A stretch of 64,000 nucleotides of DNA from an uncultured bacterium (GTDB lineage Bacteria > Patescibacteriota > Minisyncoccia > Phycocordibacterales > PALSA-1337), in the NCBI GenBank assembly GCA_903872035.1, contig CAIQIZ010000021.1, positions 18,157 through 82,156 of the forward strand, read 5' to 3'. Positions 10,737 to 51,509 of the stretch are shown one piece after another. The first letter of the stretch is position 1, and the number at the start of each line of letters is the position of its first letter. The notes beneath the pieces were generated by a model, which saw only the letters and a program-made list of their open reading frames with translations, was not told where the DNA came from and ran no database searches. Made by a program: the position numbers and the translations under genes.

Positions 10737-11543
10737 TCATTTTAGCGAATACCTGCTCCAACGGCGTTCACCTTCCTTTTTGACTATCCCCTTTTCTACT
10801 AATTCCAGCAATTCACGCTGGATCGTCTTCTGGCTGCAATCCTTGATGACTTTAGAGAAGTCCTTTATGGTCAAATTCGACTGCGTCTTTAGGACATTCA
10901 AAATCGTCTCCCGACGATTAGACTTTTTCTCTTGCAAACCACCTTGTCCTTTAGTGTATCGCTCTTCTCGGCCATTCTCCTGACTCCTAGCTCCTTGCTC
11001 TTGGCTCCTAGTGCTCCTACTGTCTGACTTGAACCCGCTGACAAATAAATCGGGTGTTTTGAAAAAAGACTCAGAAAGGACATAACCAGCCTTTTCGGCG
11101 CTCATAGCCAGACGATCTCGGAGCATAGATACGATGTTATCAATTTCACGGACCAACAGGCGATGATTCATCTCGGATACCAGATTGGAGATCCTGGCCA
11201 CATTCAATAGAGAGAGGGTTTCCAAGGCTGCAGTAAACAGTGACTGTATGACGATATTTTTATCGCCAGGCATAGAGCTTGATGCAGTGAAAGATGAGGA
11301 CAAAAGGTCAATACCACGATCACGCAATTCCCACTTGATAGGCTCATCGTCCTTTAGAAGTCCCGAGACCAAGTAAAGAGCAGCTGTAATCTTTTCTGTC
11401 TTTTTGAATATGTACAATAGGTATTCTTCCGCAGAGAAAAACCCCAATGTTTTCCAGTTCAATGGGTTATTGAAGGATTCTTGATTATTTGATTCTTTGT
11501 TGTCCATTATAGCTATAGGTCTGTCCTTTTGACGCCGAACCAC
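10737..11543 (-). CDS. Hypothetical protein with a C-terminal winged-helix HTH (putative transcriptional regulator). Carries an in-frame low-complexity repeat insert
   Basis: C-terminus TILNVLKTQSNLTIKDFSKVIKDCSQKTIQRELLELVEKGIVKKEG resembles a DeoR/wHTH domain. Internal tandem RSQEQGARSQENG is encoded by a CTCCTAGCTCC-type repeat at about 10965-11020. Confidence 0.5.
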   Translation of the reverse strand: MVRRQKDRPIAIMDNKESNNQESFNNPLNWKTLGFFSAEEYLLYIFKKTEKITAALYLVSGLLKDDEPIKWELRDRGIDLLSSSFTASSSMPGDKNIVIQSLFTAALETLSLLNVARISNLVSEMNHRLLVREIDNIVSMLRDRLAMSAEKAGYVLSESFFKTPDLFVSGFKSDSRSTRSQEQGARSQENGREERYTKGQGGLQEKKSNRRETILNVLKTQSNLTIKDFSKVIKDCSQKTIQRELLELVEKGIVKKEGERRWSRYSLK

Positions 11544-11724: not shown

Positions 11725-14088
11725 ATGCTATTATTAGAGATTATGGCAAAGAAGAAAGAAAAGGACTTGGGAAAAAAGATCAGATTTTGGGATGAGATGC
11801 GCGATGAGACGGTACAGGTGATACTCTCCATATTCTCCTTCGTAATCACCATATTGACCTTGTTGGCGGCTTTTTATCATGGCGACAACAGTAACTATGC
11901 CGGTCCGATCGGCAACTTTTTCTATACTTATATGACAAAGCTTTTTGGCATCGGCTATTTCCTTGTTCCGATGGCTTTCGCCATGCTCGGTGTCTCATTC
12001 CTTCAAGGATTAAAGAAAAAGATAGAGATATCCAAGGTGCTCGGCGTCTTTCTCTTCTTCATCACCGGATTAGGCCTATTGAATATCGCCTACTCTGACG
12101 CTGGTGGCATAGTCGGTCGAACGATCGACTACCCGCTCGTGAAACTGCTCGATACCATTGCGAGCGCGATCCTCTTGGCCGCCATCCTCATTGTCGGAGT
12201 GATCATGACATTCAACTTGTATTTCACCTTCGCCGATCTACGAGAATGGAAAGAGGAAAGGAAGCTAAGACTGGAAGCAAAAGGTAAAAAGGAAGATGTC
12301 GGCAAAACAACCTCTGGTATAGACAAGAGCGAAGAGGAGTTCATAGCTCAAGCGGTAGCAAAGGCCAAGAGCGGTGGAGAATTGACGGCCCGAGAAGCCG
12401 AGGCGGCAGCTGCCAAAGCCCGTCTCGACGCAATGGAAAACAAGAAAGCAAAGACTGGAAAGCCTTTGGACACTGACGATCTTTCCGACTTCAAGACATT
12501 GGGGCTTTCGGCTGTCGCCTTGCCGCATCTCTTACCTTTCACTCCCCCACCTCTGACCTTGCTCGAAAAAGATCGTGGCAAGCCGGAGACCGGAGATATC
12601 AAAGCTAACGCTAATATAATCAAACGAACGCTGCAGAACTTCGGGATAACGGTAGAAATGGATGAGATTTCCATAGGCCCATCGGTCACTCGCTATGCCC
12701 TGAAACCGGCTGAAGGAGTGAAGCTCTCTCGGATAGTCACTTTGAACAATGATCTTTCCTTGGCTTTGGCAGCCCACCCTATCCGCATCGAAGCACCGAT
12801 CCCGGGAAAATCTCTGGTCGGCATAGAAGTACCGAACACTGCCAAGACTACCGTCGGATTGGCAACCCTTCTTTCCTCACCTGATTTTCAGGAATCAGAG
12901 AAGCCTCTATACATGTCGCTTGGTAAAGACATCACCGGAATGGCCCACTTCGCCAATCTAAGCAAAGCTCCACACATGCTCATCGCTGGAACTACTGGTT
13001 CTGGAAAATCGGTTACCATTCACGCACTTATAACTTCCCTCTTGTACCGCAACTCTCCCGAGAATATGAAGTTCATCATGATCGACCCAAAACGCGTGGA
13101 GCTGACTTTGTACAACAAGATTCCCCACCTTCTCACTCCAGTCATCACTGATCCAAAGAAGGCTATCCTGGCTCTGAAATGGGCAGCCAAAGAGATGAGC
13201 CGCCGATACGACATTTTGGAAAAGAACGCGGCTCGCGACATCGATTCATACCACAAGACGATCTTGGCGCCGGCATTGGCAGCCTGGAGCAAGGAGGAAG
13301 GAGCAAACAGGAAGAAGGAAGGGGATCCTGGCTCCTCACTCCTAGCTCCTAGCTCCTTGCCCGAGACAATGCCGTTCATTGTGATCGTCATCGATGAGTT
13401 GGCTGATATCATGCAGACCTACCCACGCGAACTGGAAGCAGCTATAGTTCGGTTGGCGCAGATGAGCCGGGCCGTCGGCATCCATCTTGTCATCTCCACC
13501 CAAAGACCGAGTGTCAACGTCATCACCGGTCTCATCAAGGCGAATATCCCTTCTCGCATCGCCCTACAAGTCTCTTCGCAGATCGATTCACGGACTATCC
13601 TCGATCAAATGGGCGCCGAAAAGTTGCTTGGCGCTGGCGATATGCTCTATCTGGGCGGCGAGATGTCCAAGCCGGTCCGCTTGCAATCAGCTTTCATCTC
13701 CGAATCTGAAGTCAAACGCGTCGTCAAATTCCTGACCGACCAATATCGCGACGAGATCATGAATGAGATCAACTTGACCCCGACAGAAGCCGGAGCTTCA
13801 GCTGCTTTCGATGCCATGACCGGAGACGACTCTCTGGAAGAGGAAGATGAGCTCTACGAGGCCGCTCGAGAAGAAGTCACCTCTGCCGGCAAAGCTTCAA
13901 CATCGTATATTCAAAGAAAATTGGGAGTCGGCTATTCGCGGGCCGCCAAGCTCATGGATCTCCTGGAAGAACATGGTGTCATCGGGCCTGCTAATGGATC
14001 TAAGCCTAGAGAGATCATCGGAGTCGGAGCAGGACTTGAGCAGGAAGTTCCAAAAATTGAAACTACTGAAACCACAGAAAGTTCATAA
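11725..14088 (+). CDS. ftsK: DNA translocase FtsK/SpoIIIE
   Basis: N-terminal TM helices; Walker A MLIAGTTGSGKSV; Walker B VIVIDELAD; C-terminal gamma wHTH domain. An in-frame low-complexity insert GDPGSSLLAPSSLP (nt about 13321-13362) is encoded by a CTCCTAGCTCC repeat. Alternative start at 11743. Confidence 0.85.
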   Translation: MLLLEIMAKKKEKDLGKKIRFWDEMRDETVQVILSIFSFVITILTLLAAFYHGDNSNYAGPIGNFFYTYMTKLFGIGYFLVPMAFAMLGVSFLQGLKKKIEISKVLGVFLFFITGLGLLNIAYSDAGGIVGRTIDYPLVKLLDTIASAILLAAILIVGVIMTFNLYFTFADLREWKEERKLRLEAKGKKEDVGKTTSGIDKSEEEFIAQAVAKAKSGGELTAREAEAAAAKARLDAMENKKAKTGKPLDTDDLSDFKTLGLSAVALPHLLPFTPPPLTLLEKDRGKPETGDIKANANIIKRTLQNFGITVEMDEISIGPSVTRYALKPAEGVKLSRIVTLNNDLSLALAAHPIRIEAPIPGKSLVGIEVPNTAKTTVGLATLLSSPDFQESEKPLYMSLGKDITGMAHFANLSKAPHMLIAGTTGSGKSVTIHALITSLLYRNSPENMKFIMIDPKRVELTLYNKIPHLLTPVITDPKKAILALKWAAKEMSRRYDILEKNAARDIDSYHKTILAPALAAWSKEEGANRKKEGDPGSSLLAPSSLPETMPFIVIVIDELADIMQTYPRELEAAIVRLAQMSRAVGIHLVISTQRPSVNVITGLIKANIPSRIALQVSSQIDSRTILDQMGAEKLLGAGDMLYLGGEMSKPVRLQSAFISESEVKRVVKFLTDQYRDEIMNEINLTPTEAGASAAFDAMTGDDSLEEEDELYEAAREEVTSAGKASTSYIQRKLGVGYSRAAKLMDLLEEHGVIGPANGSKPREIIGVGAGLEQEVPKIETTETTESS

Positions 14089-14117
14089 AGTCAGAAAGTT
14101 TTAAAGTTCGTAAAGTC

Positions 14118-14462
14118 ATGAAGATTGAAAGATTCGAAGACATAATAACCTGGCAGAAAGCTAAGGAACTTAGTTTGCTTTGTTATGTACTCTTTAAGAA
14201 CAATAAGGACTTTAAATACAGAGATCAGATACTATCTGCGGTTGTTTCTATTATGAATAATATCGCCGAGGGATTCGAAAGAAAAGGAAATGTGGAATTA
14301 AAACGATTCCTATTTATAGCAAAAGGTTCTTCGGGTGAAGTTAGATCTATGCTATATTTGGCCCTCGAATTGAAATATATTTCCGAGCAAGATTTTAATA
14401 AATGCTATAACCTTGCTTTAGATGTGTCCAAAATGCTTTCTGGCTTTATTAAGACTTTATGA
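14118..14462 (+). CDS. Four-helix-bundle protein of the 23S rRNA intervening-sequence protein / Avd family (PF05635, TIGR02436-like)
   Basis: ITWQKAKEL...NIAEGFERKG..ELKRFLFIAKGSSGEVRSMLYLALEL.YI matches the conserved pattern of the family. Flanked by inverted AAAGTT/CTTTATGAAC-type repeats at 14077-14117 and 14454-14500. Confidence 0.75.
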   Translation: MKIERFEDIITWQKAKELSLLCYVLFKNNKDFKYRDQILSAVVSIMNNIAEGFERKGNVELKRFLFIAKGSSGEVRSMLYLALELKYISEQDFNKCYNLALDVSKMLSGFIKTL

Positions 14463-14481
14463 ACTTTCTAACTTGTCACTT

Positions 14482-14907
14482 TACGAACTTATGACTTTGA
14501 CTCGCACCAACACCCTTCGTCTTATCCGATTCATCGGCATCGGTCTCATCGTGACATTAATAGTGGTTTACGCTATCTGGCGCTCTTTGAATTACGCCCG
14601 TGGACCCGAGATAGATGTCTTCGATCCGTCGAATGGATCTTCCATGAGTTCCTCAACAGTCGCTATCCATGGACGCGCCCTACGTGTAAATAACTTATTT
14701 TTGAATGGAAATGCGGTTTCGGTCGATCAGCAAGGCAATTTCAGCGAGACGGTCATCGTCTTTCCCGGCATGAACGTCCTTACATTGACCGGACAGGATC
14801 AATTCGGAAGGAATACAAGAAAAGAATTGGAAATCGTCGGAATGGTTAATCTACCGATGGCTCATTCATTGATCCCGCCTGTGACATCGACTAGCACGCA
14901 GCAATAG
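14482..14907 (+). CDS. Hypothetical membrane-anchored protein (the track ORF starts at 14422 and overlaps the upstream gene; the likely start is MTLTRTN at 14482)
   Basis: N-terminal TM LIRFIGIGLIVTLIVVYAIW, then a soluble domain. No recognisable family. Confidence 0.45.
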   Translation, partial: YELMTLTRTNTLRLIRFIGIGLIVTLIVVYAIWRSLNYARGPEIDVFDPSNGSSMSSSTVAIHGRALRVNNLFLNGNAVSVDQQGNFSETVIVFPGMNVLTLTGQDQFGRNTRKELEIVGMVNLPMAHSLIPPVTSTSTQQ

Positions 14908-15030
14908 TTCGTAAAGCTAGAAAGTTTGTAAAGTTCATAAAGCCTTTGAAAGCTGACTTTCGGTGCGATACTTTATGAACTTTTAAACTTGTAACTTTCA
15001 AACTTCTGCTGTTGTAACTTTTCATAAAAT
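14906..15030. repeat. Intergenic hairpin repeat of the AAAGTT / CTTTATGAAC family (solo inverted repeat without ORF)
   Basis: GTTTGTAAAGTTCATAAAG ... CTTTATGAACTTTTAAAC inverted repeat. The 10-mer CTTTATGAAC is shared with repeats at 14077-14117, 14454-14500 and 18464-18565. Confidence 0.6.
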
Positions 15031-15140
15031 GGTATTATTGCCATACGCCTGTACATTATTATTTTGCAAATATTCCTTCCATAACTCGAAGCCTGCTCGA
15101 GAACGGAAGGTATTTTGTAATTTCTAACAAGAATTAACCT

Positions 15141-16405: not shown

Positions 16406-16798
16406 ATGAATTGCTCCATTATAGGTTGGTGGAACCAGCCTGATTTCCACACGCTAGCAATAGTCAAGAACCGCGCAGGAGTTGTGTCCATAGACAATTC
16501 ACACGTTTTTTCCGGGATTCTATTTGTCCACAAGGATGGCCACATCGACGAGAGCGTTTCCCTCTTGATCGACAAGAATGGCCTTGCAACGTTGTCGAAC
16601 GCAAGGATTGACCTTATAATCGGAACTATCTCGTTCATCAAAACATACGTGAGACGAAATGACTCTATTTTCTATCAAGCCTCCTACGTGGAGAAAGACC
16701 GCTGCTGGCGCGGCGAATTCAATGGCGAAGCGACCGGCCACGGAACAACAGCTTTCGTCATCCAGGAACTACCGGACTCTTTGTTCGTCGAAGATTGA
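16406..16798 (+). CDS. Hypothetical protein
   Basis: Longest ORF in the recA-efp gap. Antisense ORFs on the minus strand (16348..16641, 16520..16741) are shorter and overlap the recA terminator. No family recognised. Confidence 0.35.
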   Translation: MNCSIIGWWNQPDFHTLAIVKNRAGVVSIDNSHVFSGILFVHKDGHIDESVSLLIDKNGLATLSNARIDLIIGTISFIKTYVRRNDSIFYQASYVEKDRCWRGEFNGEATGHGTTAFVIQELPDSLFVED

Positions 16799-17979: not shown

Positions 17980-18462
17980 TTAAAACGGTATGTCGTCAGG
18001 ATTGATCTCTTCCTTCGGATATTCGATGGCTTCGCCAGGCGCGGCTCCCTTTTCATCAGAGATACCTTCTGGCACAGCCCCTTCAGAAACCGCCGCCTTG
18101 GTAGCATTAGATGGGCTTGAACCGGCGCTTCCAGGACCCTTCCAACCAAACTGTATATTGTCAGCAATGATCTCTGTGCGATATCTTTTCTCGCCATTTG
18201 GAGTTTCCCAGGAACGAGTCTGGAGGCGGCCTTCGACGAGAGCTTGCTGCCCCTTCTTCAAATATTGAGCTGACAATTCGCCGAGTTTGGCAAAGGCTAC
18301 AACGTTGTGAAACTCAGTAGTATCCTTGAGGACACCCTCTTTATCCTTATATTTTCGATTGGTGGCAACGCTCAGATTGGCGACCTTCGTTCCGGATGGC
18401 AAGGCCTTCAATTCCGGATCGCGGGTCAGATTACCTATGAGATATACTTTATTTAGGTACAT
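17980..18462 (-). CDS. ssb: Single-stranded DNA-binding protein
   Basis: OB-fold N-terminus MYLNKVYLIGNLTRDPEL...FHNVVAFAKLGE. Gly/Ser-rich linker and acidic tail DDIPF. Confidence 0.9.
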   Translation of the reverse strand: MYLNKVYLIGNLTRDPELKALPSGTKVANLSVATNRKYKDKEGVLKDTTEFHNVVAFAKLGELSAQYLKKGQQALVEGRLQTRSWETPNGEKRYRTEIIADNIQFGWKGPGSAGSSPSNATKAAVSEGAVPEGISDEKGAAPGEAIEYPKEEINPDDIPF

Positions 18463-18463
18463 G

Positions 18464-18565
18464 TTATTTATAAGTTAGAAAGTTTACAAGTTTGAAAGTT
18501 GCAAGTTATTTTATGCCGGACTTTATGAACCTTCTAACTTGATGAACTTTATAAACTGTTAATGT
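18464..18565. repeat. Intergenic AAAGTT / CTTTATGAAC-family hairpin repeat between rpsF and ssb
   Basis: AAGTTAGAAAGTT ... AACCTTCTAACTT inverted repeat plus CTTTATGAAC / GATGAACTTTATAAAC. Confidence 0.55.
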
Positions 18566-18567
18566 GA

Positions 18568-19071
18568 TTACACCTCTTTGACCATTTCATCTATGCTCTT
18601 ATCCATCTCTTCGATGGTTGCAGGAGCAGCATCCTTCTTCTCGATTGGAGCAGCATCAACTCCCTTGATAACTGGCCGTTTCAAGGTCAGGTTGGCGACC
18701 ACTTCAGCGGCGCGCTTGCCGAGATAAGTGTTCTCTCGAACCGTGGTAATGAGGAGCATTCGTAAGACAGTCGGGATGAGCGAGACGGCATTCTTTACAG
18801 CCTCAACCTTGAGAGAAGAGACCTCGAACTTGACCCATCCAAAATATGCCTCCTCATACTTCTCGTACGAACCGGCAACAGTCTTCCGACGCATCGTATA
18901 AGCCAGATGCTCTCGATGCGGCATCTCTTCGGCTATGACTTCAGCTCCGGAATCAACGATTATCTTCTTAACCTTATCAGTTTCAGCTCCGACTTGATCT
19001 TCCGGAACCGACGAAATGATGAGGTACCCTATCTCGTAGACCGCTAGGCGGTCATCATGAATATCATTCAT
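18568..19071 (-). CDS. rpsF: 30S ribosomal protein S6 (with C-terminal extension)
   Basis: N-terminal 95 aa match S6 (YEIGYLI...EHLAYTMRRK...G.Y). rpsF-ssb-rpsR is the classic operon order. Confidence 0.8.
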   Translation of the reverse strand: MNDIHDDRLAVYEIGYLIISSVPEDQVGAETDKVKKIIVDSGAEVIAEEMPHREHLAYTMRRKTVAGSYEKYEEAYFGWVKFEVSSLKVEAVKNAVSLIPTVLRMLLITTVRENTYLGKRAAEVVANLTLKRPVIKGVDAAPIEKKDAAPATIEEMDKSIDEMVKEV

Positions 19072-19399
19072 ATTGTTTTGCAGTCAGCTACCTGTCTATT
19101 TACAGGACCTCTATTCGCATTGAGACCATCTCCGGCAGGTGGGATGGGTCCCAAGTGGCAAAATCAAGGACTTACTGCGATTACGTACTGTTATTAATGT
19201 ATTCACGAGACTACCACACAAATGCCCTGCCCTGCAAGAGCTAGAGGCCCTAAGAGCTTACTAAATCAGTATGAAGAAAGGTTAAAAATTGTCTCAAGAA
19301 ACGATAAAAAATGTCTCAAGAAAGCGTGAAGAGGAACGCGAATGGCCATGTCCCACTTCAAACGGGCCCACCGTTCTGAAGCAGGACATAGCCATTCGC

Positions 19400-20248
19400 T
19401 TATACTAACTTAAAGAATCGCTTCGCATTCGCTAGAACTTGTTTGGCCACGACTTCTTCTGATTGGCACTTGATCATGGCCAAACTTTTCACAGCTTCGA
19501 TGACATAGGCGGGTTCATTGCGCTTGCCACGGTAAAGTTTCGGGGCAACGAACGGGCAATCGGTTTCAGTCATAATGCGATCAAGAGGGACATATCTGAT
19601 GACTTCGTCGTAATTGCGAGCGAAGGTGATCACGCCAGTAAACGAGAATGCGTAGCCAAGATCCAAAAAAGGCCTAGCTTCTTCTATGGTTCCAGCAAAA
19701 AAATGTAGGTCACCTTTGACTTTGGATCTCTCTTTGATGATTTGGTAAGCATCATTGTAAGCCGACCCAGTTGATGCTTTTTCCGGATTGCGCAAGTGAA
19801 GCATCAACGGCTTACTAACTTCATTTGCGACATCTATCATCGTTTCGAATGTTTGGCGCTGCTTCTTGGTAGACTCTTCATTCAAGCGATAATAATCCAG
19901 ACCACATTCACCTATAGCCACGACTTTCGGGTCACGGGCTAGGTCGACATAAGCTTGCTTATCCACAGCTTCTCCCCTTGATGTGAACTCTTTACCACCT
20001 TCCCCCAGTTCCTGTGTATCATGATGGGAAGCTGTTGTGTGAATGGGATGTAGACCGACAGCAGCAAACATATTCTCATGTTTATGAGCCAATTCAATGG
20101 CTATCCGCGAGGTATCGATTTGAGTGCCGACGGTGATCATTGCCACCCCCGCTTCTTGGGCACGTTTGATGACCTCCTCCCTATCGGAATCGTAGGCGGA
20201 AAAATTCACGTGACCATGAATGTCTATGTAAGAATATGGTTTTGACAT
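19400..20248 (-). CDS. tatD: TatD-family metal-dependent DNase/hydrolase
   Basis: IDIHGHVNF...; HxH and conserved Glu/His/Asp positions of the TIM-barrel TatD family. Confidence 0.75.
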   Translation of the reverse strand: MSKPYSYIDIHGHVNFSAYDSDREEVIKRAQEAGVAMITVGTQIDTSRIAIELAHKHENMFAAVGLHPIHTTASHHDTQELGEGGKEFTSRGEAVDKQAYVDLARDPKVVAIGECGLDYYRLNEESTKKQRQTFETMIDVANEVSKPLMLHLRNPEKASTGSAYNDAYQIIKERSKVKGDLHFFAGTIEEARPFLDLGYAFSFTGVITFARNYDEVIRYVPLDRIMTETDCPFVAPKLYRGKRNEPAYVIEAVKSLAMIKCQSEEVVAKQVLANAKRFFKLV

Positions 20249-33804: not shown

Positions 33805-36800
33805 TTACTTCTTAATATCAAACTTCTCACCAAATTCAATAGCTGACAAGCGGGTAGCCGCTTTGATAGCTTGTTCGTTCTTACTGATCAAAGATTTCAT
33901 GTCTTCCGTCGCGACCAATACCGCCATATCGTTGACCGTCAATCCTTTCTCTTTGCGGAGGTCTTGGATCTTACGGAGCAATTCGCGGAGCTCGCCTTCT
34001 TCTTTAAGCTCAGGAGTAAGGACAGTATCCAATTCGACATCGGTTTCCATACCACCGTCGAATACAACTTCTTTTACATTAACTTCATCTGTTATGAGCC
34101 CAAGGAGTTCAGAATTTAAATCCTTAATTTTTGAATCCTTAATTTTTAACTTACCCAATGGTTGACGTACATTTATCTTTGCCGTCATCCTGGCTTCTAA
34201 ACCTTTGGAAGCGATAGACCGGACTAATTCCATGCTAGTCAATAATTTCTCATCGACTTTCCCTGCTTTCGGCCATTCTTCGAGGTGTACGCTTTCTTTT
34301 TCGCCTCCAACGCCTTGGTACAAGAAGTCAGCAAAGAAAGGCGTGAGCGGCGCCATGACTTTCGCCAATGATTGCAACACGAATTGTGTGGTAGCCAAAG
34401 CCGCTTGCTTGTCTTCAGCATTTTCTCCTTTGAATCGGTCGCGGGAACGTCGAAGATACCATTGGGAAAGATCTCCGACGAAATCTCGAATCGCTCGTGC
34501 AGGTTCGAAGAATTTGTAGTTGTCCAATCCGGTGGTCGTGGTTTCTATGAGCTGATTGAGTCTGGCGACGATCCACCGATCTAGAACATGAGATGTATTT
34601 GAAAGCTTGAAAATGTTTCCGGACCGAGCGCTGTGGGCCAGCGGCGAGGCGGAAGTATTTTCAAGCGATTCATCCACATATAGCTTATAGAACGACAGCA
34701 CATTCCCCGCCAAATTAAAGACCTTTTTATTTATCTCATCCACAGTCTTCTGATCAAAATTCTTGGAATCACCAGGCTGATTGACAGAATACATCCAGAA
34801 CCGCAGCGCATCAGCTCCATAGGCGTCCATCATCTCGAAAGGATTGACGACATTGCCGATAGATTTCGACATCTTCTTTCCTTGAGGATCGAGGATATGA
34901 CCGAGGCAGATGACATTCTTATAAGCCTTGCCTCTGCCCATGAGCACCCCGACTGCGTGCAATGTGTAGAACCATCCACGCGTCTGATCTATGGCTTCAG
35001 AAATAAAATCAGCTGGGTATGGGAATTTCTCCTTGCCGATCAAGCCGTGTTCTTTGCCACCAAGAACATGATCCTGGGCAAAAGGCATAGACCCGCTATC
35101 GAACCAGACATCCATGACTTCTTTGACTCGGCTCATTTCTCCACCACATTCGCAGGTCAATTTTACTTCGTCTATATAAGGACGGTGAAGGTCGAGCTCA
35201 AAATCAGGATTGTGAGGAAGGATCGAAAAGTCGAGTTTCCTAGCTTCCGCTTTTTGAACATACTTCAACTTATTCCAATCAGCCGCCTCGCTCTTTTCTA
35301 GTCCAGCGGCGGCACTGATAAGCATCATAGCCGGACATCCGTGAGTAACGATCAAAATCGTACGGCCTTGATATTTATTCTCCATTTCATAGAGGAAATC
35401 TCCGACCCTCTTTCTGACATCTCTCCAACTCTCAACCCCATCATCAGCCTTATTGAATCTGTCTTCGTTTATCGGAAACTTCTTATCGAATTTCGCCATA
35501 TCCTTGCCTTCCCAAGAGCCCATCCCCATTTCACGGACTCGCTCATCGACGATAACCTGCCCAGCTTTGAGACCGAGCGTATCAGCGACAAGATGGGCGG
35601 TCTCTTTGGTCCGCATGATCGGTGAAGTTATCACCAAATCTATCCCTGATTTTTTTAAGGCTTCGGCGGTTTTTGATACGTTTTCTTTACCCAACGCAGT
35701 CAAATGGCTCACCATCTCCAAACCGCTGTTCAAAGTCATTTTTACATTATTCTCCGCCTCGCCATGCCGCATAACATAGTAAGTATTGCGCGGCTTCTTG
35801 GAGACATCAGCCACTGATCCAGCAACTTTCCATTTCTTGCATTTGTCGCAAACCCAGACTGGTAAAGGCGTACCCCAATAGCGCTCGCGGGAAATGGCCC
35901 AATCCTTGACTTCGCGGAGCCATTCACCAAAACGACCTTCCTTTATATGCTCCGGCTCCCAATTGATGCCTTCATTTTCTTTGACCAGCTTGTGCCGCAA
36001 GTCCGACATTTTGATGTACCACGAATCACGGGCAAAATAGATGAGCGGTGTGTGACAGCGCCAACAGAAAGGATAGGTGTGCTCGTATTTTTCTTTACTG
36101 AATAGGATGCCACGGTGCGCCAAGTCTTTGATGATCTCCACGTCGGTCGCCTCATTCTTGACGAATTTGCCGGCCAAAAATCCAGCTTCATTTTTGAAAG
36201 TACCGTCTTCTTTTACCAGATGATATTTCGGCAGGCCTACCTTCGTGCCCAATTCAAAATCGTCCTGACCATACATTACAGCGGTGTGCACTATTCCAGT
36301 CCCATCTTCAGTAGTGACAAAATCAGCAGGATATACTTTGTAAGCATTCGACAGCTTCTCTTTTTCCGGACCGGAAATAGATTCTTTGAGAAATGGATAA
36401 AGGGGTTCGTATGAGAGACCGACCAATTCTTTGCCTTTGAAGGTCTCGATTATTTCCGGCTTCGTGTCTTTAAAAACTGCCTCCAGGCGATTTTTGGCAA
36501 GAATGTATGTCGTGGTCGCGTTTTTTGAATCTCCTTCCTCCTTACTGCTTCCTTCTTCCTCCATTTTTCTAACTTTCACATAATCGATCTTCTCCCCTAC
36601 CGCCAAGCCAACGTTGCCCGGCAATGTCCACGGCGTCGTCGTCCAAGCCAACAAATAGGTCTCGCTTGATCCTTCCTCCTTACTGCTCCCTCCTTCCTGC
36701 TTCAAGACCTTGAATTTCACTGTGACTGAAAGATCCTTGACCGTCTCATATCCTTGCGCCAATTCGTGCGACGACAAAACAGTTTGGTCATGAGGACACC

Positions 36801-47199: not shown

Positions 47200-47273
47200 T
47201 ACAAAAACAGGGCTTTCGCCCCATTTTTTCTTCATTAACTTTACAGACTTTAAAGACTTTAAAGACTTTCTGA

Positions 47274-47696
47274 CTATTTTACTTCAACTCCCATCTGTCT
47301 GGCCGTACCAGCAATGGTCTTCATAGCTGCTTCAATAGTATTTGCATTCAAATCAGGCATTTTCTTTTCAGCGATCTCTTTGAGCTGAGCTTTGGTGATC
47401 GTGCCGATCTTCGAAGTATTCGGCTTACCAGAACCCTTCTCTTTCTTCAAAGCTTTGAGGATGAGGCTGGAAGCTGGCGGAGTCTTCAAAACGAAGCTAT
47501 AAGTTCTGTCCTCATAAACTGTAATGACTACTGGGATCATGTCCCCAATCATAGCTTTAGTAGCATCGTTGAACTTTTTTGTAAAATCGCCAATGTTCAC
47601 GCCGGCCTGTCCGAGTGTCGGGCCCAACGGAGGCGCTGGGGTTGCTTTCCCTGCTGGAGCGATGACTTTTACCTTTTTGATGATTTTCTTGGCCAT
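47274..47696 (-). CDS. rplK: 50S ribosomal protein L11
   Basis: MAKKI...[27 protein letters not shown]... matches L11. Confidence 0.9.
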
Positions 47697-50477: not shown

Positions 50478-51509
50478 TTACGCCGACCACCTGGCGAATA
50501 TTCCACAAGGCAACAAACGATGTTGTTGATAATTTACATGGGCGTCGTCCGGAACGGATCCGGTTTGCCGCTGGCCCACAACGCTCAAACCTGATCCGTT
50601 CCTCCCTCCTTCTTCAATAGCCAATTCTCCCATCTCAATCCTTCCCCCAAATTTCTCCACAAGCGGTTTCAAAATATTCTCATAAGCGACCGGGGAATAT
50701 CCCGAGGCATAGCCATTTATTATAAAGAATAACGGCTTGTCAGCGAGAATTTTTATACAATCATCGATAAGAGGTAGCAGGCTCTCTTCGATCTTCCATA
50801 ATTCATTGTCAGGACCATGACCGAAAGCAGGCGGGTCCATAATAATACCCGCGTACTTGCGACCACGTTTGACTTCACGCTTTACAAAAGTATGAGCATC
50901 GTCGAGGATCCAGCGAATCGGTTTCTTTTCCAATCCCGACAATTCAGCATTCTCTCGCGCCCATGAAATAGCGACTTTGGAACCATCGACGTGAACGACT
51001 TTGGCTCCAGCTTGAGCACAAGCCAGCGAAGCACCGCCTGTGTAGCCGAACAAATTAAGAATTTCAATTCCATCGACGTCGTCCGGAACGGCTCCGGTTC
51101 GCCGCTGGCCCACAGCGCTCTCACCGGACCCGTTCCTTCCTCCTTCCTCCTTCCTGCCTGCTTCAATGCAACTCCTCAACCATTCCCAATTCACAGCCTG
51201 CTCTGGAAAAAGTCCCACGTGCTTGAACGATGAAGGTCTGATCCAGAATTTCAATCCACCAAATGCGATCTGCCATTTGTCAGAAGTAGTCTTTCTCATA
51301 TTCCAGCTATTCGTAAATGCACCATCAGCTTTCTTCCATTCATCAGCCGACAATCTCTTGTGCCACAAAGCCTGTGGATCAGGTCGCGCCAAAGTGAACT
51401 GGCCGAAACGTTCCAGCTTCTCCCCTTCTCCAGAGTCGAGCAGCTCGTAATCCGGATTGGAATCTGTTATCTGAATATTTGAAATCTTGTTCATTTTTCG
51501 TATGCGCAC
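50478..51509 (-). CDS. Class I SAM-dependent (rRNA) methyltransferase, RlmI/YccW-like (PF10672), carrying two in-frame palindromic-element insertions
   Basis: LNLFGYTGGASLACAQAGAKVVHVDGSKVAISWARENAELSGL...IIMDPPAFGHG matches the RlmI catalytic domain. The inserts encode GGRNGSGESAVGQRRTGAVPDD and GGRNGSGLSVVGQRQTGSVPDD. Confidence 0.6.
   Translation of the reverse strand: MRIRKMNKISNIQITDSNPDYELLDSGEGEKLERFGQFTLARPDPQALWHKRLSADEWKKADGAFTNSWNMRKTTSDKWQIAFGGLKFWIRPSSFKHVGLFPEQAVNWEWLRSCIEAGRKEEGGRNGSGESAVGQRRTGAVPDDVDGIEILNLFGYTGGASLACAQAGAKVVHVDGSKVAISWARENAELSGLEKKPIRWILDDAHTFVKREVKRGRKYAGIIMDPPAFGHGPDNELWKIEESLLPLIDDCIKILADKPLFFIINGYASGYSPVAYENILKPLVEKFGGRIEMGELAIEEGGRNGSGLSVVGQRQTGSVPDDAHVNYQQHRLLPCGIFARWSA
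50546..50602. repeat. Palindromic repeat element, copy C (in-frame in the methyltransferase gene): arms GGAACGGATCCGGTTTG / CAAACCTGATCCGTTCC around core CCGCTGGCCCACAACGCT
   Basis: 57 nt (a multiple of 3); same core as copies A and B with different, self-complementary arms. Confidence 0.7.
51078..51136. repeat. Palindromic repeat element, copy D (in-frame in the methyltransferase gene): arms GGAACGGCTCCGGTTCG / CTCACCGGACCCGTTCC around core CCGCTGGCCCACAGCGCT
   Basis: Shares the flanking GTCGTCCGGAACGG with copy C. Followed by a CCTTCCTCC low-complexity tail similar to the ileS inserts. Confidence 0.65.

Follow-up and report, generated by a model that had tools for sequence, protein, structure and literature searches.

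What is a gene of the rRNA intervening-sequence protein (IVP) family doing between two protein-coding genes, enclosed by repeats that take in the stop codon of one neighbour and the start codon of the other? The question is raised by a 64-kb stretch of DNA (contig CAIQIZ010000021.1, positions 18,157 to 82,156; hereafter the window, whose numbering is used throughout) from an uncultured bacterium that its RecA homologues place in Paceibacterota / Parcubacteria of the candidate phyla radiation (CPR). An initial annotation, made from the letters alone, proposed that a mobile cassette resembling an rRNA intervening sequence (IVS) had been inserted there behind ftsK, an interpretation that the present analysis supports and generalises beyond the window genome. 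The data show that the cassette (14076-14498) has been inserted and that its design has been conserved from one phylum to another; it lies in sense orientation in co-directional gene pairs, and its arms co-vary. At a rough probability of 60%, we read it as a promoter-less, single-gene selfish element of IVS type, transcribed with the host operon and inserted in sense between ftsK and a small-protein gene. The nature and origin of rRNA IVSs and the role of their conserved open reading frame (ORF) have been a question since about 1990, and the family concerned, PF05635, is very large (in a representative library, 9,524 clusters at 50% identity reach E <= 1e-3) yet annotated merely as 'four helix bundle protein'.

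A single gene between two arrays of tandem units

The cassette and the host genes that it joins are laid out as follows.

11725..14088, plus strand: host gene ftsK, with Pfam FtsK domains
14076..14117, plus strand: 5' arm, five tandem AAAGT-ending units (AGAAAGT TCATAAAGT CAGAAAGT TTTAAAGT TCGTAAAGT c)
14118..14462, plus strand: IVP gene, encoding a 114-aa four-helix-bundle protein (PF05635 / TIGR02436; Avd fold)
14453..14498, plus strand: 3' arm, six tandem ACTT-starting units (ACTTTATGA ACTTTCTA ACTTGTC ACTTTACGA ACTTATG ACTTTGAC)
14491..14907, plus strand: host gene for a 138-aa membrane-anchored protein with a Glucodextran_B-like domain (138 aa also in the JGI gene call)

The 5' arm, 42 nt long and poor in C, is built of tandem 7-9-nt units of the type NNRTAAAGT / NRAAAGT and extends to the IVP start codon, and the 46-nt 3' arm is the reverse complement of this unit type. 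The flanks had been described as partly reverse-complementary. This holds in that 14076-14092 and 14453-14469, the best exact inverted match, are complementary at 17/17 positions, and 14096-14117 and 14453-14474 at 86% over 22 nt; the notion of one long inverted repeat, on the other hand, gives way to arrays of short tandem units, which are detected independently by Tandem Repeats Finder. In the predicted minimum-energy fold of 14060-14520 the ORF is enclosed by a long stem (-110.6 kcal/mol, z -3.7, with 0/100 shuffles as good), as the proposal of an enclosing stem had anticipated, and the 5' arm folded alone gives 0 kcal/mol and no structure. The 10-mer CTTTATGAAC, counted with at most one mismatch, occurs 16 times against 4.8 expected (0/100 shuffles reach 16) because it is the commonest unit type of the arrays; eleven of these 16 occurrences fall in the three sites that the initial annotation had named. 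Chance or low complexity as the source of the arrays is ruled out by the shuffles and by their recurrence in about 150 independent loci.

As had been noticed from the start, both arms reach into the host genes. The final codons of ftsK (E-S-S) and its stop TAA (14086-14088) come from the first 5'-arm units, the stop lying within the second, and the C-terminal tail of the protein departs from its relatives past the conserved GSKPRE(I/V) motif. At the far end, the first 3'-arm unit coincides with the last codons of the IVP ORF (K-T-L-stop), and the arm overlaps the start codon of the next host gene (ATG 14491), a true start whose N-terminus MxLTRT is kept in four relatives (L085, L086, L087 and L173). 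With host stop and start codons inside the arms, the three ORFs are only 29 and 28 nt apart. No sigma-70-like promoters or intrinsic terminators were predicted in the arms, and neither Rfam (gathering thresholds) nor ARAGORN found an RNA family, rRNA or tRNA within the window. Since it lies outside any rRNA gene, the most fitting name for the element is an IVS-type cassette of mRNA context.

The protein itself clears the cut-offs of both PF05635 (23S_rRNA_IVP; E 8.8e-30, 103.5 bits against 33.8) and TIGR02436 ('four helix bundle protein'; 99 bits against 24), so that its initial assignment to the IVS-protein/Avd family is confirmed. An AlphaFold2 model made from 25 homologues predicts four helices (pLDDT 96) in an up-down bundle like those of 2GSC and 2RLD, and its Foldseek matches include XCC0516 (2GSC, template-modelling score (TM) 0.90), BT_0352 (2RLD, TM 0.83) and Avd (4DWL, TM 0.78), with the ribonucleoprotein (RNP) of a diversity-generating retroelement (DGR), 8UB7, ranked after 2GSC and 2RLD. 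The last two, of five chains each, are homopentameric rings outside the DGR world, and share 24-29% identity with the IVP over the structural alignment, against 11-14% for Avd. The sequence of the IVP is strongly conserved, with many invariant residues. It occurs once in the window, in a cassette of 33% GC within a host of 46.6%, and the identical protein stands at the ftsK site in 19/19 contigs of the same species that were read. Contigs identical to the window derive from lake metagenomes. Apart from a change in the TatD-family gene of L001, described below, L001-L004 match the window at 99.85-100%.

Empty sites and ORF-less copies

The same units recur in the window at three places without an IVP gene, close to where the initial annotation had seen hairpin copies (14906-15030 and 18464-18565) and a related tandem (47240-47270).

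14900..15011, unstranded: solo hairpin without ORF, between the 138-aa gene and the recA leader
18468..18560, unstranded: solo hairpin without ORF, occupying the 105-nt gap between rpsF (18568-19071, minus strand) and ssb (17980-18462, minus strand)
47232..47275, unstranded: lone array of four ACTTT units (AACTTTACAG ACTTTAAAG ACTTTAAAG ACTTTCTG) without partner arm

The first hairpin runs through 5' units (14906-14943), a loop (14944-14969) and 3' units (14970-15008); the stop TAG (14905-14907) of the 138-aa gene lies in its first unit, and 14900-15030 is predicted to fold at -32.5 kcal/mol (z -4.0) on the plus strand and -37.6 (z -5.5) on the minus strand. The second has its 5' units at 18470-18507 and 3' units at 18518-18557, and the fold of 18455-18570 is weaker (z -1.6 and -2.3). 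The loops of both hold no recognisable IVP remnant, and both are palindromic intergenic copies of the cassette units, comparable to miniature inverted-repeat transposable elements (MITEs) or repetitive extragenic palindromic (REP) elements. The lone array, scored by Tandem Repeats Finder as 3.6 copies of ACTTTAAAG at 47238-47269, has no fold by itself and adjoins a terminator-like hairpin.

That the gene, the hairpins and the arrays of the window are insertions follows from their absence in five syntenic relatives (L085, L086, L087, L173 and L175). The order ftsK, small ORF, recA, efp, rpsR/ssb/rpsF is kept in them as far as the contigs reach, the contig of L087 stopping before recA and L085 covering no more of ftsK than its end, and the small ORF is 56-71% identical to that of the window (measured in L085, L086 and L087). 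None of the five has an IVP gene, and 41 kb of their sequence contain no AAGT/ACTT arrays at all. The spacer between ftsK and the small ORF measures 402 nt in the window and 15-134 nt in the relatives; that between rpsF and ssb, 105 nt in the window, measures 33-55 nt in the relatives and has no units, and the hairpin at 14900-15011 is missing at the homologous spot in L085, L086, L173 and L175. The idea of a mobile cassette placed between ftsK and the next gene, for which an empty site in the ftsK-recA interval of related genomes had been the suggested check, is thus supported by five such sites, and no relative has the gene at this place without repeats. As to a target-site duplication, the nearest empty sites (L085 and L173) are too diverged in their spacers for junctions to be drawn at the level of single bases.

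Some relatives without the cassette bear long hairpins of unrelated sequence in the same two spacers, namely AAAGCAAAGTCC...GGACTTTGCTTT at L086 4868-5000 and GAGCAACACAAAAGGA...TCCTTTTGTGTTGCTC at L175 3842-3990, and the two spacers look like hot spots of hairpin insertion. In the closest relative (L085 1884-2389) a hicAB toxin-antitoxin pair follows recA, in the place of the window's 130-aa ORF (16406-16798).

The same architecture in other phyla

An alignment of close homologues, run against one genome for each species, yielded the 80 closest IVP loci (set 1), whose proteins are 56-71% identical to the IVP of the window. Their hosts belong to CPR lineages, Bacteroidota, Leptospiraceae, Gammaproteobacteria, Bdellovibrionales, Ignavibacteria, Omnitrophota and Desulfocapsa, and the first seven of these groups contain IVPs with 56-77% identity to that of the window. 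Both flanks are readable in 75 of these loci, where the 100 nt upstream of the gene hold on average 4.5 AAGT and 0.4 ACTT, and the 100 nt downstream 4.85 ACTT and 0.6 AAGT, against a background of 0.5. At least three units are present on each side in 63/75 loci, with a core-to-core spacing of nearly always 7, 8 or 9 nt. The first ACTT begins 9 nt before the end of the stop codon in 27/66 related cassettes, and the last unit precedes the ATG by 0-20 nt, with no sharp peak. The co-localisation of arrays and PF05635 genes, which had been put forward as a check, is therefore overwhelming in other genomes, and this layout is a general architecture of the IVP family outside rRNA, not a peculiarity of the window genome.

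The orientation of these cassettes is nearly uniform. The IVP gene is on the same strand as its upstream neighbour in 71/74 loci, as its downstream neighbour in 69/74 and as both in 62/68, and in no case is it opposed to both. The median gaps to the neighbours are 50 and 56 nt, so that the arms fill the intergenic spacers, and the GC content of the cassette is below that of the host in 78/79 loci. None of the 80 loci lies in an rRNA context according to a scan for conserved rRNA motifs, the single hits in four loci being spurious, and Rfam, run on seven, gave only tRNAs. The cassette of L074 (4883-5470) sits between tRNA-Val and tRNA-Met; in L101, L102 and L127 an IVP cassette stands directly 5' of a sequence resembling a tRNA start (gggggatcgtctaacggtaggac...).

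Copies without the ORF are also widespread, with 16 solo hairpins across the set 1 loci and the window, and many lone arrays in set 1. Two hairpins (in L054 and L079) still encode in their loops a remnant of the IVP N-terminus, its first ~20 residues, which suggests that some solo hairpins, if not all, arose from the coding element by deletion. Other arrangements were observed as well: in L027 (3729-5000) a 402-aa ORF stands between 5'-type and 3'-type arrays immediately before the IVP gene, L067 (4803-5400) has the order hairpin-IVP-hairpin, and the upstream flank of L167 the order hairpin-IVP-arm.

Distant relatives keep the design and change the unit

A family member of 42% identity, used to search metagenomes, gave 80 further loci, 72 of them usable (set 2). 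Here too tandem units stand upstream and their reverse complement downstream, with a 5' arm poor in C and a 3' arm poor in G, and the unit varies from cassette to cassette, as in these pairs.

5' AGGTT, 3' AACCT
5' TTCAGT, 3' ACTGAA
5' GTGAAAGG, 3' CCTTTCAC
5' GCAGAAAG, 3' CTTTCTGC
5' GGTCAGGG, 3' CCCTGACC
5' GGTGAGT, 3' ACTCACC
5' GACGTTTT, 3' AAAACGTC

A 7-9-nt period above the 95th percentile of shuffled flanks was found in 41 upstream and 41 downstream flanks (n=72), against 8/206 random positions. Pairing each 5' arm with the 3' arms of other cassettes is uninformative in set 1, because all its arms share AAAGT, and gives a clean control in set 2: complementarity is 29.6 for cognate and 14.1 for non-cognate arms, the cognate arm ranking first in 31/72 cassettes and among the top three in 50/72. 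Over 144 cassettes the similarity of the arms follows that of the proteins (Spearman 0.59, or 0.66 for GC-matched pairs), being at background below 50% protein identity and rising steeply above 55%. Moreover, the AAAGT core is preserved across phyla at 56-77% protein identity, and within a subfamily the unit sequence is conserved at divergences that would randomise neutral DNA.

The design is also found in cultured bacteria, with GGGAAAA units in Nostoc sp. ATCC 53789, whose cassette lies at pNsp_c 96451-96828, and AAGGTT units in Riemerella anatipestifer, where it lies at NZ_CP081938 100318-100734; only a 3' array is evident in Nostoc sp. PCC 7120. IMG/VR returned just two distant matches on viral contigs, one with GAAAT-type units (L089) and the other a frame-disrupted copy without recognisable units (L088).

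A model for the cassette and its weak points

In the model that we propose, the cassette would be transcribed by read-through from the host operon. Its G/A/U-rich 5' arm would stay single-stranded until the C/U-rich 3' arm has been synthesised, whereupon the two could form an imperfect stem, some 35-45 bp long, around the IVP message. By analogy with rRNA IVSs, where such a geometry is the target of RNase III, this stem might be what allows the insertion to be tolerated in essential transcription units. The tandem conserved units would be putative recognition sites for the cassette's own IVP, whose binding may control or protect the cassette RNA or aid its propagation, and the solo hairpins (14900-15011 and 18468-18560) and the lone array (47232-47275) would be ORF-less derivatives of the cassette, analogous to MITEs.

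The probable reader of the units is the IVP, presumably pentameric like its solved relatives, and its homologue Avd, which binds an RNA stem-loop of its own, offers a further precedent. A purely structural stem needs neither periodic units nor a conserved core, which points to a reader of the units; such a reader would have to vary by subfamily and yet travel with the cassette between phyla, which would leave the IVP as the only candidate. In this regard TRAP, a ring-shaped homo-oligomer that reads rows of (G/U)AG repeats, each subunit taking one repeat and 2-3 variable bases lying between repeats, offers a working analogy only, since its fold is unrelated and the binding of units by the IVP is hypothetical. 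More tentatively, and with the odds rather against it, IVP proteins could be sequence-specific readers of their own arrays, maybe with one unit per subunit of the pentamer, and could form together with them a minimal transposase-less mobile element of operon spacers, tRNA clusters and rRNA helices that propagates in an undescribed way. In that event rRNA IVSs and some heptamer repeats of cyanobacteria and Beggiatoaceae would be its special cases or debris.

Several observations weigh against the cassette being a selfish RNA-level element of IVS type. If the stem of the sense-strand RNA were the selected feature, an excess of G.U over A.C mismatches between the arms would be expected; the counts are 46 against 50 in set 1 and 36 against 45 in set 2, with no wobble excess. 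Complementarity is not reduced when the 3'-arm units are put in another order (n=21, p=0.68, a test of low power), so that pairing in same-unit cassettes is explained by the shared motif alone, and neither test supports a selected base-pairing register. The co-divergence of proteins and arms would also result from plain co-inheritance. Compound layouts (hairpin-gene-arm, or arrays in the same orientation), present in 14/72 set 2 cassettes, are not predicted by a model of one stem and one ORF. No rnc gene was seen in the window, an absence of little weight at 64 kb. Lastly, transcripts, cleavage and IVP binding are inferred for the window and the other non-rRNA cassettes.

Competing explanations

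The serious rival is a role of the arrays at the DNA level, as terminal inverted repeats offering multiple sites to a DNA-binding IVP or to a transposase acting in trans, with the solo hairpins as MITEs and RNA pairing as a by-product. The absence of a G.U bias and of a unit-order effect is what such a transposon would show, its inverted rows of short sites would recall the multi-site ends of Tn7- and Mu-type elements, and solo hairpins with ORF remnants, lone arrays, compound arrangements and relatives that differ in presence or absence would all be at home in it. We nevertheless hold it to be improbable, at something like one chance in a handful, given that neither Pfam nor the called genes reveal a transposase or recombinase in or adjoining the cassettes, that a 114-aa helical bundle has no nuclease or recombinase chemistry known for it, and that the one experimental context of the family is RNA processing (PMC4990558). 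Moreover, the near-absolute sense orientation (both neighbours in 62/68 loci) is not a property of DNA transposition, and selection would have to supply all of it.

Somewhat less probable still is a host regulatory device, in which the hairpins would be REP-like intercistronic elements acting in stabilisation, processing or attenuation and the IVP a domesticated RNA-binding regulator or chaperone for all hairpins of the kind. The position of the solo hairpins between co-transcribed housekeeping genes (rpsF-ssb and small ORF-recA) would suit this role, as would an IVP with many invariant residues that is fixed at its site in all 19 same-species contigs read. A device of the host should not, however, be missing with all its hairpins from five close syntenic relatives that have the same operons, nor be of foreign composition in 78/79 loci, have its nearest homologues scattered among unrelated phyla and adjoin different, unrelated genes in each genome.

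A remnant or accessory of a DGR, which the Avd fold and the Foldseek matches to Avd and the DGR RNP might suggest, is effectively refuted for this locus: Pfam finds no reverse transcriptase (RT) domain in the eight ORFs scanned around the cassette (about 11.7-19.1 kb), precomputed Pfam assignments show no RT among the genes called up to 10 kb away on contigs of the same species (no search was made for template or variable repeats), the neighbours of the single IVP copy are ftsK, the Glucodextran_B-like ORF, recA and efp, and the IVP is much nearer to the non-DGR proteins 2GSC and 2RLD than to Avd. An integron cassette is rejected, there being arrays on both sides and no integrase in the Pfam-scanned ORFs or among the genes called within 10 kb, and so is an anti-phage defence system, for which PADLOC gave no match.

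Relation to known systems

The cassette is evidently related to the ORF-bearing IVSs of 23S rRNA known from Leptospira, Coxiella burnetii and Brucella (PMC4990558). They have in common the protein family, an ORF enclosed in a long stem of terminal inverted repeats, short tandem repeats directly 5' of the start codon, sense orientation in a host transcription unit, and a sporadic, horizontally transferred distribution, the window cassette being absent from the same site of close relatives. In Coxiella, the IVS has a 28-bp terminal stem with tandem heptamers before the ATG (GACAGAT, two or three times) and is excised by RNase III, which cuts at the first heptamer (PMC4990558). The cassette differs in standing between protein-coding genes and not in a 23S or 16S rRNA helix, in having arms that are arrays of 4-6 units on both sides, and in the ORF-less copies dispersed in its own genome; excision by RNase III, moreover, has been shown for rRNA IVSs alone.

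With the Avd proteins of DGRs (4DWL, 8UB7) the IVP shares the four-helix-bundle fold and, in solved relatives, the pentameric ring. Avd binds a defined RNA stem-loop dedicated to it in the DGR complex (bioRxiv 10.1101/2023.10.23.563531), and the DGR RNA sequences flanking the template pair with each other. What distinguishes the cassette is that it has a single gene, no RT in the scanned neighbourhood and a protein only 11-14% identical to Avd.

The solo hairpins, imperfect palindromes of ~100 nt dispersed in intercistronic spacers, resemble REP elements and bacterial interspersed mosaic elements (BIMEs), enterobacterial repetitive intergenic consensus (ERIC) sequences, MITEs, which arise by internal deletion of coding elements, and the Correia elements of neisseriae, which are substrates of RNase III. 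Unlike all of these, their arms consist of 7-9-nt tandem units, the full-length form encodes a four-helix bundle and not a transposase, and the architecture recurs across phyla with varied unit sequences.

Short tandem heptamer repeats are also known from cyanobacteria as short tandemly repeated repetitive (STRR) sequences. The arrays are like these and like the TAACTGA repeats in being mostly intergenic, oriented to a start codon downstream, in many cases stopping a few bases short of it, and common to distant lineages. The TAACTGA repeats of Beggiatoaceae and cyanobacteria, tandem 7-nt units upstream of start codons, were nonetheless described as direct repeats only, with one inverted repeat noted, no paired inverted arrays and no mention of a link to PF05635 (PMC4679880). 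Integron cassettes, lastly, are likewise promoter-less single ORFs that rely on an upstream promoter, have one orientation and carry an imperfect palindromic site. Their attC is at one end only and they need an integrase and an attI platform, whereas IVP cassettes have arrays at both ends and are scattered in ordinary operons with no integrase nearby.

No published description of the cassette architecture was found in the open-access literature, a scope in which absence is no proof. IVP genes inside cas operons have been read as functional associations (PMC3936711, PMC10910872), of which insertion in sense orientation into operons gives a simpler account. IVP genes in cas, restriction-modification or other operons need not be functional partners, and caution is advisable in this respect. 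The cassette family also offers a possible origin for the dispersed hairpins and tandem heptamer repeats of many genomes, and if the IVP does read its own arms, the cassettes may represent a minimal mobile element of a new class. The stereotyped design makes the binding of protein to repeat, processing by RNase III and mobility experimentally testable, and cultured carriers exist.

Neighbouring genes and further repeats in the window

Downstream of the 138-aa gene lie recA, the 130-aa ORF of unknown family (16406-16798) and efp, with rpsR-ssb-rpsF on the other strand. The recA leader (window 15030-15140; L085 470-680; L173 3900-4000) is conserved among relatives; a hairpin (ttccttcc...ggaagg) directly precedes recA in it, and there is also a promoter-like stretch, tggtattattgccatacgcctgtaca. 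In L085 an additional GC-rich hairpin is inserted between the two.

Within ftsK, at 13286-13357, an in-frame hairpin of another heptamer family occupies a variable loop of the FtsK motor domain, which is ~11 aa longer there than in L086 and L087. Its GGAGNAA-type units are followed by CTCCTAG/CTCCTTG units (-39 kcal/mol, z -2.6), a G-rich arm and then a C-rich one, as in the design of the cassette arms. Further tandem heptamer arrays are found at 10984-11011 (CTCCTAG, four copies), 36531-36562 (CTCCTTC, 4.6 copies) and 51134-51155 (TCCTTCC, three copies). The first of them, inside a 268-aa ORF (10737-11543, minus strand), has ACTCCTAGCTCCTTGC in common with the hairpin in ftsK. In the rpsF-tatD spacer (19263-19324) there is a 22-nt tandem repeat of about 2.5 copies, AAGAAAGGATAAAAAATGTCTC, and in L001 (15625-15660), a population variant, a 63-nt duplication or insertion in the TatD-family gene (window 19714-19742) splits the ORF.

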